From the NCBI GenBank assembly GCA_028714495.1, contig JAQTMH010000002.1:7219-71218 (forward strand): a stretch of DNA of 64,000 bases, in the 5' to 3' direction. The first letter of the stretch is position 1. Every line of letters starts with the position of its first letter. Source of the DNA: Patescibacteria group bacterium. GTDB lineage: Bacteria; Patescibacteriota; Patescibacteriia; JAHIZJ01. Below, piece by piece: positions 1-52,118 of this stretch. The notes under the pieces are model-generated. The model had not been told where the DNA came from and searched no databases. It saw only the letters and a program-made list of their open reading frames with translations. Made by a program: the position numbers and the translations under genes.

Positions 1-399
1 ATCTCTTCATCGTCTGCACCGCAACCATTGTCACCGTTCAGCATGGCGGCTTTATTGCCAAAATAATTCTCAACAGTTACACCATAATGCTGTGACCAAG
101 GATCGGTAATTAAATGACCAGCCGTATAACTTTGAAAATCGTCAGCATAAGGAATTCCCACGGTAGTAGTTGCTAATACGGGGGGCGTATTGTCTGGACT
201 GCAAAATTGTACTTCATTTTTAACGCCTTCATCTTCAAGGCTCGCCTCTCCCTTATAAACCTCCGTGGCTGTTTTATAAACAGCTTCTTCAGACGCGCTG
301 TGAGCGACTTGGGGTAAAATAAAGATGCTTAGACCGGAAAAATAAAATATCATTGCCAGCTGGGCCGTGATGTTAATTCCCTTGATCAATGTTCTTTTC
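1..399 (-). CDS. Partial CDS, N-terminal part of a secreted protein; start codon at 399-397, gene continues beyond the window start
   Basis: My own translation of the minus strand gives MKRTLIKGINITAQLAMIFYFSGLSIFILPQVAHSASEEA..., a signal-peptide-like N-terminus. The reading frame stays open to position 1. It is absent from the ORF track because there is no stop in the window. Confidence 0.4.
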
Positions 400-26528: not shown

Positions 26529-26700
26529 AAATGTATTTAAAAAATCTGCTTTCCCGCAGACATAAAAAGGTTATTATTTACCTCGGAAGGCTTATTTTTA
26601 ACCCCGTACCGGAGCGTTAGCGACTGGTATAGGGACCCTCTGTCTGCGGTATTTATCCTATTATATCAAATGAGCAATTTGTGTCAAATATTAAGAAATA
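26529..26700 (-). promoter_or_regulatory. rplJ leader region (possible L10(L12)4 autoregulatory structure) plus promoter
   Basis: Roughly 170-nt untranslated leader with complementary CUGCGG/CCGCAG and repeated UGUCUGCGG segments. Assigned by position only. Confidence 0.25.
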
Positions 26701-47723: not shown

Positions 47724-48670
47724 AGATTTTTTACCTTTCTCTGGAACCTTTTTGCGATGAAAGATAAAATGATGCCTAGAGCTGCTAGCCCATATCCAAT
47801 AGTAACATTGTACCAACCCAGAAAATTTCCTAGAAAGCCGAAGACAATCAAAACAATCGCGGTGATTCTTAGAATTAGGATAGTTTGAAAAGAAGACAAC
47901 CTCTTGCCCTTAGTTTTCTTTTCGCCTTGATCAATTATCGCTGGCTGATCTCCGCGAATCATATTGACAAAGGCGCTTTCTAAATCCACCGCCCGAGTAT
48001 GCTGCTTGATCGCCGCGACTGTATCCACCGCGATAATCCTGCCTTTGTGCATTATCGCCACCCGGTCGCAGAGCTTTTCCGCGTCAGCCATTTCGTGGGT
48101 TGAAAGAATTACCAGCCTGCCTTCTCCCCTGACCCGCTGGATAAACCTCATGACTGTTTGCGAAGCTAAAACATCCAAACCGGCAGTCGGCTCATCGAAA
48201 ATTATCACTTTTGGGTCGTGAATCACTGATCGGGCAATGGCCAGTTTCTGCTTCATGCCGGTTGAATATTTGCCAGATCGTTTATCGGCAAAATCCCGCA
48301 TATCCAATAAATCAATCAATTCATTTATCCGGTTTTCCAGCTTTTCGCCCGCTAAGCCATAGAGTTCGCCGAAATACCTGAGATTCTCACGGCCGGTAAA
48401 ACGTTCATAGACTCCAATTTCAGTAGTTAATACGCCGACATTCTGCCTAACTTCTTTGGATTGTCTAGAAATATCAAAACCAGCTACCTCGGCTGTACCT
48501 GAGGTTGCCTGTAAAACCGTGGCAATGACTCGAATCGTCGTGGTCTTCCCCGCGCCGTTTGGCCCCAATAATCCAAATACTTCCCCGGATTTAGCCTGCA
48601 AACTTACATTATCAACGGCTGTAAAGGTATTAAATTTCTTGACTAAATTCTTGATATCGAGAAGTAACAT
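47720..48670 (-). CDS. ABC transporter ATP-binding protein with unusual C-terminal two-helix membrane extension
   Basis: Walker A GPNGAGKTT, signature YSTGMKQKLAIA, Walker B IIFDEPTAGLD. C-terminal ILILRITAIVLIVFGFLGNFLGWYNVTIGYGLAALGIILSFIA. Confidence 0.8.
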   Translation of the reverse strand: MLLLDIKNLVKKFNTFTAVDNVSLQAKSGEVFGLLGPNGAGKTTTIRVIATVLQATSGTAEVAGFDISRQSKEVRQNVGVLTTEIGVYERFTGRENLRYFGELYGLAGEKLENRINELIDLLDMRDFADKRSGKYSTGMKQKLAIARSVIHDPKVIIFDEPTAGLDVLASQTVMRFIQRVRGEGRLVILSTHEMADAEKLCDRVAIMHKGRIIAVDTVAAIKQHTRAVDLESAFVNMIRGDQPAIIDQGEKKTKGKRLSSFQTILILRITAIVLIVFGFLGNFLGWYNVTIGYGLAALGIILSFIAKRFQRKVKNL

Positions 48671-49249
48671 AGTCCTATAGCATATCAAATTTATACTTAT
48701 TGTTCAAACCAAGGTACCAAAAAAGAGGAACAACGGAGTGTTTCTTTCCTACCGTGGCGGTTCAACCGAAGCGGTTTTTTTCTACCCGGCTTAGCCGATT
48801 TTTTACTTCCGACTTCTACTCGGCTTTAGCCGAGGGTCTCAAAGGCTTTAGCCCTGATAGTCTATCATAATCTATCCAACCCTTACTATCCTCACCAGTA
48901 TCAATAACTGAATATACCAATTTCCGTGCGTATTCTTCACCAAATTTATCTTCAATCTGTCGATAACTAGAAAATGGATTTTCTCTCAATTCCTGAAAGG
49001 TATTTACCTCTTTTCACCACACTACCTTCTAACTGACTTTAGTCAGGTTGGTAATTTAGTAGCGATAACCCCGCCCCCATCCTAACATAGGCCGCAGATG
49101 ATAGACGCTAAACCGCTAGGCGGCTTCGCCTTATGACCATTATATACCAAGGCTGTGGTTGGGATGGAGACGGGGTTATTTGCGGTGACTTCGACGTCGG
49201 CCTGACTATGGTTATTTACTTTTACCCATTATTTTTGCTAGTTCTATGC

Positions 49250-49645
49250 AAATAAAAAATGGGGCACCGAGTATGATCCCCTTACTTACCTTAGCTCGGT
49301 CGCCCCATGCCCGGGTTTCGTAATGAACAATCGCACTCGCTTGCGCGCTATATCAGTCCCGATTTGCGGGACGACTCCCGGTTAAAGGAGGGAGGATTTA
49401 AACCTCCTGCGCACTAGGCAGCCAACCTGACGTGAAAGGGTGAAACACCTTTTCCTCGCCCGCGAGGCTAGCCAGTCACCTCCTTTTCTCTTTGCCGTCG
49501 CCAGCACGGCGAGGCAAACCACACGCGCTTGCTTGTGGACTCTCGGACCCTAGGGACCCGAGAATGAGCATGCCTAGAGCCGTTTCCAGCCTAGGCACTA
49601 CTATCATATATTAATATAAAAACTTGTCAACCTAGGGGGTCGGGA
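49250..49645 (-). ncRNA. Candidate structured non-coding RNA (unassigned family) with its own promoter-like element and intrinsic terminator, immediately downstream of tRNA-Pro
   Basis: Roughly 400 nt, G+C-rich, with no credible ORF. Many stems (GCCUAGGCUGGAAACGGCUCUAGGC, GGAGGUUUAAAUCCUCC, GCGAGG...CCUCGC). GUGAAAGGGUGAAACACC-like motif on the opposite strand. Terminator-like GGGGAUCAUACUCGGUGCCCC plus U-run near 49255. TTGACA-N16-TATGAT on the minus strand near 49600-49640. Confidence 0.25.
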
Positions 49646-49681
49646 CAAGTTTGAAAATATGGCATTCCCACCTTTCTCCAG

Positions 49682-49755
49682 TCGGGGTGGAGAGACTTGA
49701 ACTCTCGACCTCACGCACCCGAAGCGTGCGCTCTAGCCAACTGAGCTACACCCCG
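49682..49755 (-). tRNA. tRNA-Pro (anticodon CGG)
   Basis: Reverse complement CGGGGTG-TA-GCTC-AGTTGGCTA-GAGC-G-CACGC-TTCGGGT-GCGTG-AGGTC-GAGAG-TTCAAGT-CTCTC-CACCCCG-A folds as a canonical 74-nt cloverleaf. No encoded CCA. Followed by a hairpin/T-run terminator. Confidence 0.85.
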
Positions 49756-49907
49756 ACTGAAGAAACGTGTTGTACGTCTTACCCTATTTTATCAATAATG
49801 GTTAAAAAAATAAAGGCTGTTTGACGGCTGCTGGTAAATCGTATCCTAATATATTTTTTTAGCAAACCTTAGCAAAATTAAGTGCATAACTGGTGCAAAA
49901 GCCGGCA

Positions 49908-50654: not shown

Positions 50655-51833
50655 TTAGGACGCCATCGGCCATTCATCAGCGTCTGTCTGATCAGCCGGA
50701 TTATCCGTCTGACCAAATTCATTCGCTGACTGACCAAAGAGCATTTCACCGGCGATTTCCTTCAAGGTGGCCAGGACGCGATCATGGCCAATCCCTGATT
50801 CCTGGGTTCTTGTGTAATCAACCGCCCTGATTACCACCTCGAAATCACCAACCGAATTCCACTCCTTTAGGTGACAGGCAAGGCGATCCAGTTCAGCCGG
50901 ATCAGCCAGAGCGCTTTCAACCAGTATCTGATCCAGTACGCGCCAATCACCTACAACCGCTACCAGTTTGTCCGCCTGTCTCTCCCAGAAGCGGCGGCGA
51001 GCCTCCTGGACCATATGGTAGGCAATCCAGAAAAGCGTCGTGTACACCGGGTCGGGATCCCTGCGCCTGAGCCAGTCAAACATTATCTGCGTGATCTCAT
51101 GGGCCTTGACTAGGCGCTTGAGTGGAGGCTTTTTGCCCCAGCCACGCAGGATTTCGACCAAGCGGTGATGATCCTGCGGATCACCCGGCAAATCGCACGC
51201 GTAGGCGATGTCTGAAAGCACCCTCCAACCGCCCACATCAACCGCGATGTTATGCAGGCAGTCTCCCGGACTGACCGCGGCTGAAGCCAATTGATTCTGG
51301 AGGCGGCTTGTGAACAACGGCTGAGTAGTTTCAGCAGGGTTATGCCCCTTCCCGCCTAAATCAGGAAGTTCAGTCTGTCTGTCAGGTTCAGCGGTTTGGT
51401 CAATCGACGACCCTTTCAGCTCATGAGTTGGGCCTGACCGTTCCAGATTGCCCTGATTGTGACCGATGGCGCGGAACAACGCGGCATTCACAATCAGCCG
51501 GAACAGCGCTGGATTTACTGACCGAGGAATGAAACCGTCGGCTCCGCACTGTCTCGCTGCTTTACGGCACATCGCGTGGTTCTGACCGGCCGGGATATTA
51601 GCCATCAGATAAATCGGGGGCCGCAAAATCAGCCTAAGCTTCTTGCTTTCCTGGACCAGGCGCAGACCAGGCGATTCATCAGATTCGGCTAAGACTAGAT
51701 CGGGCTGAAAGCAAGAGATCATAGTCAGGGCTGAGGCCAAATCGGACGCGCCGCAGACCTCAACCCCAGCCAGCAGATCGGAGTAACTAGCCAAACGACC
51801 CAGATTGATGTCAAATACCAGGATTCGTTCCAT
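50655..51833 (-). CDS. Response-regulator receiver (REC-like) domain protein with large uncharacterised C-terminal domain
   Basis: N-terminal RILVFDIN...PDLVLAES...PIYLMANIP...GADGFIPRSV follows the CheY-like (beta-alpha)5 pattern. The phospho-acceptor position is atypical. G+C-rich. Confidence 0.45.
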   Translation of the reverse strand: MERILVFDINLGRLASYSDLLAGVEVCGASDLASALTMISCFQPDLVLAESDESPGLRLVQESKKLRLILRPPIYLMANIPAGQNHAMCRKAARQCGADGFIPRSVNPALFRLIVNAALFRAIGHNQGNLERSGPTHELKGSSIDQTAEPDRQTELPDLGGKGHNPAETTQPLFTSRLQNQLASAAVSPGDCLHNIAVDVGGWRVLSDIAYACDLPGDPQDHHRLVEILRGWGKKPPLKRLVKAHEITQIMFDWLRRRDPDPVYTTLFWIAYHMVQEARRRFWERQADKLVAVVGDWRVLDQILVESALADPAELDRLACHLKEWNSVGDFEVVIRAVDYTRTQESGIGHDRVLATLKEIAGEMLFGQSANEFGQTDNPADQTDADEWPMAS

Positions 51834-52118
51834 GACCCAACCTCCTCTTTGTGACTCATAATAAAAAGAGCCTCATTAGAGGAGGCGTCATTTCTAGGGA
51901 CTAATCCTTATTGTCCCTGAGCTTTGTAACTATAACCTTGATGCCGGTTACGCTACTGGCTCCCGATGAACTGTACCCCTTAGCTAAAGCTATGGGGTAA
52001 AGCGTCCAAATTCAGTTCATCGTTCGACGCCTCATCATTACTACCCTAGTGTTTCCAGGATAGTAAAAAAACATTAGCATATTGTTTTCAGAATGTCAAG
52101 CCCCTGCGGATACTGCCC

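Follow-up and report, generated by a model that had tools for sequence, protein, structure and literature searches.

tRNA-like processing modules are found within long transcripts, e.g., in MALAT1/mascRNA of vertebrates and in the 3' external transcribed spacer (3'-ETS)/tRNA-linked small RNAs (sRNAs) of Escherichia coli. In Y RNAs, the two ends of the molecule form the stem that binds Ro; their tRNA-like part has no true anticodon loop, and their genes adjoin rsr (Ro60). The bacterial Y RNAs (YrlA) have been described as tRNA mimics (PMC4201824). The tRNA-Other of Bacillus cereus is also tRNA-shaped and reportedly is not used in translation but affects cell physiology (PMC3399842). In Patescibacteria, tRNA genes may carry group I introns of >200 nucleotides (nt) with a P1-P9 core in the anticodon loop, between the two tRNA halves, and thereby escape annotation (PMC13011429). 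Here, we analyzed a stretch of 64,000 nt, henceforth the window, of a Patescibacteria genome (assembly GCA_028714495.1, contig JAQTMH010000002.1), in which a gene for a structured RNA with a tRNA-like core lies between an ABC ATPase gene and the gene for tRNA-Pro(CGG).

The best reading overall, with a probability of about 0.5, is that this locus encodes a narrowly distributed, tRNA-derived mimic RNA of ~345 nt, predicted to be independently transcribed and to belong to an uncatalogued family. That it is a new, conserved, tRNA-like noncoding RNA (ncRNA) matching no Rfam family is considered highly probable; that it is a mimic without a decoding function is a more tentative proposition.

The RNA gene and its homologues

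A preliminary description of the window had placed at this site a separate gene for a structured RNA, equipped with a promoter and a terminator of its own, and the sequence signals bear this out. The gene and its hairpins outside the tRNA-like core are as follows.

About 49597/49598 to 49254, minus strand: ncRNA transcript of ~345 nt, whose ends were placed according to the -10 box (5') and the U-run (3')
49603-49630, minus strand: predicted sigma-70-type promoter, with -35 box TTGACA (49630-49625), a 16-nt spacer and -10 box TATGAT (49608-49603)
49570-49598, minus strand: H1 hairpin, GUGCCUAG...CUAGGCAU, with a GAAA tetraloop (GUGCCUAGGCUG-GAAA-CGGCUCUAGGCAU), found in all five full-length members
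49542-49562, minus strand: H2 hairpin, CUCGGG...UCCGAG
49519-49538, minus strand: H3, which varies by lineage
49491-49518, minus strand: H4 hairpin, UUUGCCUCGCC...GGCGACGGCAAA, immediately 5' of the tRNA-like module
49356-49372, minus strand: C1 hairpin, GUCCC-GCAAAUC-GGGAC, 11 nt past the tRNA-like module
49254-49306, minus strand: intrinsic terminator, a 46-nt hairpin (GGGGCGACCGAG...CUCGGUGCCCC, 49306-49261) followed by AUUUUUU (U6)

The promoter, TTGACA-16-TATGAT, is near-consensus (11 of 12 positions in a promoter scan). The terminator hairpin is visible in the minimum free energy (MFE) fold and was missed by a simple terminator scan because its loop measures 23 nt. The MFE of a 351-nt stretch covering the gene is -156.8 kcal/mol, as compared to -128.0 +/- 5.7 kcal/mol for dinucleotide shuffles (z = -5.0), and none of 100 shuffles was as stable. 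The RNA was assigned to the minus strand because its helices contain many G.U pairs. Its length of about 345 nt replaces an earlier estimate of ~400 nt, and its G+C content, described before as far above the background, is clearly higher than that of the whole window, but not far above it (0.57 vs. 0.46). The stems quoted in the preliminary description do exist: one is H1, and two others, the T-arm-like GGAGG-UUUAAAU-CCUCC and GCGAGGCUAGCC, belong to the tRNA-like core discussed below. The claim that the region comprises 1.2 kb without a credible open reading frame (ORF) needs correction: an ORF scan revealed no ORF of note across the RNA, but the segment 48689-49250 contains a transposase remnant, palindromes and a hairpin. 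The upstream gene had been identified correctly as tRNA-Pro(CGG) on the minus strand with its own hairpin/T-run terminator; it is a separate gene.

49681/49682-49755, minus strand: tRNA-Pro(CGG), detected by ARAGORN and scoring 65.7 bits with the Rfam tRNA model

The hairpin and U-run that terminate the tRNA-Pro transcript are located at 49650-49618 and overlap the ncRNA promoter including its -35 box. In all relatives, tRNA-Pro(CGG) lies 0.1-4.3 kb upstream of the ncRNA on the same strand.

Homologues were sought via synteny, i.e., on contigs encoding homologues of the neighboring ABC ATPase, which itself is 100% identical to an NCBI protein from the metagenome-assembled genome of a 'Patescibacteria group bacterium'. 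The window copy is designated W, and the loci of the relatives carry the designations given here, with the identity of their ABC ATPase to that of the window.

L045 (GCA_028717285.1): ABC ATPase 93% identical; full-length RNA; the closest relative of W
L050: ABC ATPase 73% identical; the contig begins inside the RNA, leaving the 3' 142 nt only
L052/L051 (GCA_018814765.1 and GCA_018824475.1): ABC ATPase 62% identical; full-length RNA
L054 (GCA_964594455.1): ABC ATPase 62% identical; full-length RNA
L056 (GCA_016294925.1): ABC ATPase 61% identical; full-length RNA

Thus, nhmmer and covariance model (CM) searches identified the RNA in four other lineages of Patescibacteria metagenome-assembled genomes, besides the 3' fragment in L050. 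The nhmmer E-values of the distant members, before their addition to the profile, were 2e-7, 3e-11 and 7e-10. The ABC ATPases of the distant lineages are only 61-62% identical to that of the window, and the SecA proteins of the window and the L054 contig are only 77% identical. The nearest named relatives of the window SecA (~60% identity) belong to Candidatus Buchananbacteria and Falkowbacteria. The intergenic DNA around the RNA cannot be aligned between the distant lineages, whereas the RNA itself can. An equivalent promoter, TTGAC(A/T)-16..18-TAnnnT, is present at the matching relative place in L045, L052, L054 and L056, and hence in all five full-length copies, and a hairpin with a U-run occupies the matching position in all copies including the L050 fragment; in L052, this terminator was called by the terminator scan. 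On these sequence signals, i.e., an own promoter and an intrinsic terminator conserved at orthologous loci, the locus qualifies as an independent sRNA gene.

Beyond these loci, the searches added no member of the family. A covariance model, R1, which scores the tRNA-like module of W at 119.7 bits, detected no further members in 396 kb of loci from the Candidate Phyla Radiation (CPR) and relatives, and no copy lies within +/-10 kb of ABC homologues of 57-64% identity that occur in other synteny (L046, L058, L093 and L094). A pattern that fits all five members (acceptor strand, UYGGC and T loop) gave 34 matches in a scan of JGI metagenomes; only the L056 contig was genuine, the others being CRISPR repeats, type II tRNAs or coding DNA. 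The same pattern had no match in viral contigs, and blastn in 'distant' mode found no match to the candidate in phage and plasmid collections. Genome contigs scanned with the ABC ATPase yielded only distant paralogues (<=44% identity) without synteny, and the clade is absent from the GTDB representatives searched. In the data reached, the family thus appears to be confined to one small clade of Patescibacteria. A literature search yielded no description of this RNA.

A lack of conservation or covariation in relatives had been named beforehand as one refutation of the RNA; both conservation and covariation were found. Since raw MAFFT alignments were structurally poor, the sequences were segmented by hand and padded with N before pairs were counted. 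One alignment, A7, covers the core, i.e., the acceptor-like stem, the anticodon-like stem, the T stem and the C1 hairpin, and another, A3, covers H1, H2, H4 and the terminator. In A7, 94.5% of the cells are standard pairs, and double-sided changes occur in 10 of the 22 pairs. None of 500 column shuffles reached the observed values on four of five measures; on the fifth, 'further pair types', 102 of the 500 did. When the partners were slid by 1-3 columns, only 0-2 pairs with double-sided changes remained. In A3, 96.9% of the cells are paired, with double changes in 13 of the 31 pairs, a number that none of 500 shuffles attained. Together, 23 helix pairs show compensatory changes, and the same local hairpins arise in independent single-sequence MFE folds.

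Outside the tRNA-like module, double-sided changes affect five of the nine pairs of H1, in which the GAAA loop is not conserved among members, three of the six pairs of H2 (100% of cells paired), all five inner pairs of H4 in a positional alignment, and four of the five pairs of C1 across six sequences. The terminator helix is kept in sequence in all six sequences and shows one-sided changes only. In the resulting structural model, the RNA is ordered, from 5' to 3', as H1, H2, the variable H3, H4, the tRNA-like module, C1, a variable stretch, and the sequence-conserved terminator. Leader (97-119 nt) and trailer (~125-140 nt) thus flank the module within one transcription unit; since their hairpins covary, they are not mere discarded spacers.

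The tRNA-like core

The key feature, which had escaped the preliminary description, is the embedded tRNA-like domain, of which the hairpin GGAGGUUUAAAUCCUCC constitutes the T arm. Its parts in the window are as follows.

49384-49486, minus strand: tRNA-like module, in which an acceptor-like stem, AAAGGAG (49486-49480)/CUCCUUU (49390-49384), encloses the D-region, the anticodon-like arm and the T arm
49431-49479, minus strand: D-region, longer than a normal D arm by an insertion of ~30-44 nt, containing the conserved motif GGCUAGCCUCGC and two small hairpins
49414-49430, minus strand: anticodon-like hairpin, UCAGG-UUGGCUG-CCUAG, with double-sided changes in three of five pairs
49391-49407, minus strand: T-arm-like hairpin, GGAGG-UUUAAAU-CCUCC, with double-sided changes in two of five pairs and 100% of cells paired

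In the curated alignment, the module has the 7-bp acceptor, the 5-bp T stem with a UUCRANY loop, and the 5-bp anticodon stem with U33 of a cloverleaf, and its variable loop measures 5-6 nt in all members. The T loop is the canonical UUCGAAU in L045, L054 and L056, UUCUAAU in L052 and UUUAAAU in W. The anticodon-like loops are UUGGCUG, UCGGCUG, UUGGCAA and UUGGCAC(G), so that U33 and GGC are invariant and positions 32, 37 and 38 vary; the loop consists of 8 nt in L056 and of 7 nt otherwise. Other features deviate from a tRNA. A normal D arm (3-4-bp stem, 7-11-nt loop, G18G19) and a purine at position 37 are not general, position 37 being U in W, L045 and L054. The D-loop insertion of 30-44 nt is homologous in four of the five members (W, where it is ~40 nt, L045, L054 and L056), which share the motif GGCUAGCCUYGC, and the stretch GCGAGGCUAGCC mentioned above is part of the D-region. 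The insertion is absent from L052, whose D arm is near-normal with two non-standard pairs and which is the sole member with a D-arm-like segment. The acceptor end is A/U-rich, mismatches in the acceptor occur in L045, L052, L054 and L056, and CCA is encoded neither in the module nor in the neighboring tRNA-Pro gene.

A decoding tRNA-Ala(GGC), made from a monocistronic precursor with a long structured leader and trailer and with a lineage-specific expansion of the D loop, is the alternative that survives best, although we consider it unlikely. ARAGORN calls a tRNA-Ala(GGC) at positions 1634-1709 of L052, exactly in the center of the RNA, and the Rfam tRNA model (RF00005) aligns end-to-end with the L052 module. 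Furthermore, U33 and GGC are invariant, the loop of 7 nt and the canonical T loop are those of a tRNA, and an own promoter and terminator are also present at the neighboring tRNA-Pro gene. However, the alignment with RF00005 scores 25.0 bits (E = 0.004 on 341 nt), below the gathering score of 29 bits, and this is the best score in the family: the four other members have no match to the Rfam tRNA model, for W even at E<=10. The pair G3:U70 is the universal identity element for alanyl-tRNA synthetase (AlaRS). In the family, position 3:70 is occupied by A-U in four members and by G-C in L052; G.U occurs in neither register. Also the pyrimidine at position 37 in three of the five members and the frequent acceptor mismatches are at odds with decoding, and compensatory change in the hairpins of leader and trailer would not be expected for sequence that is simply trimmed off. 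As mentioned, the tRNA genes of Patescibacteria may escape annotation through insertions, which in that case are group I introns (PMC13011429), but the insertion of 30-44 nt is too short for such an intron. A group I intron was also rejected as a candidate in its own right: the 7-nt anticodon-like loop is uninterrupted, the insertion lies in the D loop only, and Intron_gpI gave no match, a negative that is limited by the ability of divergent group I introns to evade RF00028 (PMC13011429).

The core can also be folded differently. RNAalifold on A7 retains the acceptor, T and C1 helices and replaces the anticodon-like hairpin by a 10-bp helix, in which UGGCUAGCCU of the D-region pairs with AGGUUGGCUG, i.e., with part of the anticodon-like stem and loop. 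This helix, which gives the module a rod shape, is 90% paired across the five sequences, as compared to 8-43% when slid; its covariation does not exceed that of shuffles (46 and 122 of 500). Both cloverleaf and rod are possible folds, and, since the D-region can pair with the GGC loop, the module may switch between them.

The acceptor-like 5' strand with four additional bases, AAAGGAGGUGA (49476-49486, minus strand), is an 11-nt perfect complement of the canonical 3' end of 16S rRNA, UCACCUCCUUU, and GGAGGUG is retained in four of the five members. Its pairing partner CUCCUUU resembles an anti-Shine-Dalgarno (anti-SD) sequence and masks this complementary stretch, after which no ORF follows. 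A small protein was considered as well: the frame that follows the strong SD-like AAAGGAGGUG comprises 3 codons in W, whereas the open frame at this place in L056 is unrelated, and this reading was rejected because no ORF is conserved.

Flanking genes and other explanations

The RNA is followed by an ABC ATPase gene in L045 and L050, by the gene for Ham1/RdgB in L054 and L056, and, in L052, by that for a transposase of the RAYT type, whereas, in the window, a transposase remnant of 560 bp intervenes. This variation bears on the possibility that the RNA is a cis-acting leader of the downstream gene, comparable to an attenuator or riboswitch, in which the terminator would be the expression platform and the two alternative folds, cloverleaf and rod, would be the switch. 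Such a leader would fit the distance from the end of the terminator to the next start codon on its strand, ~15-45 nt both ahead of Ham1/RdgB (L054, L056) and ahead of the ABC ATPase (L045, L050), the conservation of the sequence of the terminator helix, as seen in expression platforms, and the two mutually exclusive pairings of the GGC loop. It is nevertheless very unlikely, given the variety of downstream genes and given that no antiterminator pairing was found to be shared by the members; pairing of H2 with the terminator could form one in W and L052 but fails in L054 and L056. Moreover, a weak promoter-like site, TTGAAC/TTGAAT-17-TATGCT, is present between the terminator and the ABC start in W and L050, although the W site matches at only 8 of 12 positions and is below the threshold of the scanner. 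The start codon of the ABC ATPase gene, according to the 316-amino acid (aa) database protein, is located at 48670, ~8 nt past this weak -10 box (48668-48707, minus strand), because of which the mRNA of the ABC operon may be nearly leaderless.

Directly upstream of the RNA, an orphan protein of 117 aa (MxIIYGVD…) is encoded in L052 (1067-1420), L054 (2961-3314) and L056 (8503-8848, frameshifted). Among 5.8 billion proteins, this protein has only 4 relatives; Pfam gives no match, and it is not encoded in the window; as an orphan absent from the window, it was rejected as a protein partner suggested by context. In W and L045, the RNA is kept even though the genes for the 117-aa protein and for Ham1/RdgB are gone from the locus. 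This survival of the RNA through the turnover of its neighbors argues for selection on the RNA itself.

The segment between the RNA and the ABC ATPase gene in the window is absent from L045, the closest relative.

48689-49250, minus strand: lineage-specific stretch of ~560 bp outside the RNA, with a RAYT/IS200-like transposase remnant, REP-like palindromes and a long hairpin

A 57-aa ORF in this stretch (…KEVNTFQELRENPFSSYRQIEDKFGEEYARKLVYSVID…; 48816-48989, minus strand) is a C-terminal remnant of an IS200-like/RAYT Y1 transposase, and a longer copy with an internal stop codon is present at 1936-2532 of L052 (Pfam Y1_Tnp, 23.3 bits). The remnant and the L052 gene share 86% nucleotide identity over 200 nt, even though the housekeeping proteins are only ~60-77% identical, which suggests a mobile or recently exchanged element. 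REP-like palindromes at 48788-48853 (plus strand), two copies of GGCTTTAGCC and one of CGGCTTAGCCG, flank the remnant, and palindromes of the AGCTTTAGCT type precede the transposase gene in L052 (1830-1915); together with the transposase, they would fit a RAYT/REP system. A long, near-perfect hairpin of 119 nt at 49063-49181 has 22-nt arms with 86% complementarity, additional inner pairs, and an MFE of -59 kcal/mol (z = -4.7). This genome-specific hairpin is without a match in Rfam and may be one end of the decayed mobile element.

The proximity of such an element and of tRNA-Pro, the degraded tRNA features of W (T loop UUUAAAU, C.A mismatch) and the very narrow distribution could be taken to mean that the RNA is a non-functional relic, either a tRNA gene in decay or a scar left at a tRNA locus by a mobile element, whether it is transcribed or not. 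This is quite improbable as well, because none of 500 shuffles matches the 23 helix pairs with compensatory changes, because promoter and terminator are kept despite identities of 77% for SecA (L054 contig) and 61-62% for the ABC ATPase, because the RNA can be aligned between lineages in which the surrounding intergenic DNA cannot, and because the RNA is present in L054 and L056 without a transposase nearby.

The preliminary description had listed RNase P RNA, tmRNA, 6S RNA and signal recognition particle (SRP) RNA as candidates, with 'something new' as a fallback. It is the fallback that has prevailed; the RNA matches no family in Rfam 15. At gathering thresholds, Rfam 15 detects only tRNA-Pro in this region of the window, and, at E<=10, none of its families, including those suggested earlier, matches anything in 49250-49620, whether searched within 1.2 kb or with the 361-nt candidate alone and the laxest filters. 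In the relatives, the models for RNase P, tmRNA, 6S and SRP give no match at E<=1, and ARAGORN finds no standard or permuted tmRNA in the window or the relatives. Because both Rfam and ARAGORN are negative, a highly divergent form of one of these universal RNAs has a negligible chance, even though the size of 300-350 nt and the stand-alone gene anatomy are reminiscent of RNase P RNA and tmRNA, the T-arm-like hairpin is similar to part of the tRNA-like domain in tmRNA, and Rfam finds none of these RNAs elsewhere in the window. The window, however, is about a quarter of one contig of 258.6 kb, so that the true genes can lie elsewhere.

The individual features of these RNAs were also sought. For tmRNA (RF00023), including its permuted two-piece form, the search covered a GGGG 5' strand, the pair G3:U70, an encoded CCA and, in all frames, a tag ORF, and the candidate was rejected: the tRNA-like part is internal, has an anticodon arm of its own and is not formed by the ends of the RNA, there is no G3:U70, and no tag frame or other short ORF is conserved when the frames are read by eye across the members. 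For RNase P RNA of types A and B, the P4 elements CR-I GAGGAAAGUCC and CR-V ACAGAAnnCGGCUUA are lacking, and there is no conserved long-range pairing of the P4 type; two look-alikes in W, GAGAGUCC and ACGAAACCCGGGCAU, cannot pair with one another, and ACGAAACCCGGGCAU is not conserved in L045, L052, L054 or L056. In the case of 6S RNA, a long irregular hairpin with a central bubble, and of SRP RNA, whose helix 8 has a GNRA loop and conserved internal loops, the multi-hairpin architecture and the non-conserved GAAA loop of H1 add to the lack of a match at E<=10. A Y RNA (YrlA) was rejected as no Rfam family of the Y RNA type matches at E<=10 and no gene for a Ro/TROVE protein is found among the called neighbors at the five loci.

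Some further elements were observed in the window. A c-di-GMP-II riboswitch (58.9 bits) at 51933-52043 (minus strand) is located upstream of an ORF for a 392-aa protein without Pfam match (50655-51833, minus strand). In L045 and L054 and, at a sub-threshold score of 50.9 bits, in L056, such a riboswitch is likewise located ahead of a protein (242-396 aa) that lacks a Pfam domain; this protein is a candidate for a c-di-GMP-regulated factor in Patescibacteria. A ribosomal protein L10 leader (L10_leader) at 26529-26667 (minus strand) is borderline (44.4 vs. 44 bits), and genes for tRNA-Trp and tRNA-Thr are located at 62.8 and 63.8 kb.

Possible function and relation to known RNAs

The tRNA resemblance suggests that the RNA acts by tRNA mimicry and not by decoding. 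The module would offer a tRNA-shaped stack of acceptor and T arm, a canonical T loop and a GGC loop to machinery that recognizes tRNA; alternatively, the target of the GGC loop may be a complementary partner containing GCC. The module is probably a substrate of RNase P, RNase Z and the CCA-adding enzyme, and cleavage at the module would liberate the leader, a tRNA-like piece and the trailer. Possibly, it toggles between cloverleaf and rod, in which case the GGC loop and UGGCUAGCC would be open in the cloverleaf and protected in the rod. A more elaborate proposal is that the RNA is a trans-acting mimic that cannot be aminoacylated, that alternates between a cloverleaf with exposed GGC and a rod in which GGC pairs with the conserved AGCC of the D-insertion, and that docks on the 30S subunit or on RNA with a GCC specifier or GCC codons, thereby reporting or regulating the capacity for translation. 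As a whole, this proposal is improbable.

Several points weigh against the interpretation of the RNA as a tRNA-derived mimic. The presumed function is deduced solely from the shape of the module. There are five distinct full-length sequences only, representing about four independent lineages given the closeness of W and L045. The structural alignment was curated by hand so that it fits the helices. The acceptor-like stem is conserved in sequence (AAAGGAG/CUCCUUU), with scattered mismatches; 88.6% of its cells are paired, and one of its seven pairs covaries. The tRNA features of W are the weakest of the family, as its T loop is UUUAAAU and its anticodon stem contains a C.A mismatch. The rod is favored over the cloverleaf by the single-sequence MFE of W and also by RNAalifold on A7. 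No gene for a tRNA-binding partner is linked to the locus, and the family is very rare, as illustrated by the JGI metagenome scan, which returned only an already known contig.

Patescibacteria, also known as CPR, account for much of the diversity of bacteria, and their genomes are tiny; to our knowledge, little has been described of their noncoding RNAs beyond rRNA and tRNA oddities. An RNA of 300-350 nt under compensatory evolution is unlikely to be idle in such genomes. If the elaborate proposal were true, regulation of translation capacity, otherwise a task of protein factors, would be performed by an RNA in bacteria with minimal genomes. The family would also provide an example of the recruitment of a tRNA gene into a new RNA. 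Its covariance model and alignment can be used for annotation, and they flag a locus that is called inconsistently by tRNA finders, i.e., as tRNA-Ala in one genome and not at all in four.

The mimic proposed here differs in its own way from each of the known systems. With a canonical tRNA-Ala(GGC), it shares the 7-bp acceptor-like stem stacked on a 5-bp T stem, the UUCGAAU T loop, and the 5-bp anticodon-like stem with U33 and GGC. It is distinguished from it by the D-loop insertion in four of the five members, the lack of G3:U70, U37 in three of the five, the mismatch-prone acceptor, and its embedding in a longer unit. Like tRNA-Other (PMC3399842), it would be a tRNA-shaped gene product of a tRNA or island-type locus; however, tRNA-Other is tRNA-sized and called by gene finders, whereas the RNA described here is 4-5 times longer, with conserved hairpins on both flanks and an expanded D loop, and comes from an unrelated phylum. 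With the MALAT1/mascRNA type, it has in common a tRNA-shaped element, embedded in a longer RNA, at which RNase P and RNase Z could cut and thereby set the ends of the flanking RNAs, but those RNAs belong to another domain of life or have another gene organization, and the mascRNA-menRNA model of Rfam gave no match.

Two further comparisons concern tmRNA and YrlA. tmRNA is likewise a large bacterial RNA (300-400 nt) and includes a tRNA-like part of the alanine type, the T arm of which is canonical; its tRNA-like domain is built from the termini, contains G3:U70 and lacks an anticodon arm, and it has a tag ORF and pseudoknots, unlike the RNA described here. YrlA resembles it as a stand-alone bacterial ncRNA with one tRNA-mimicking module that includes a T-arm-like element (PMC4201824), but the module in the Patescibacteria RNA is internal and has a GGC loop of its own. 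Thus, beside tmRNA and the Y RNAs, this family may represent a third bacterial design for a tRNA look-alike inside a larger RNA, combining a tRNA-derived core, an invariant GGC loop and a canonical T loop, without the alanine identity pair, with an expanded D loop and conserved flanking hairpins.

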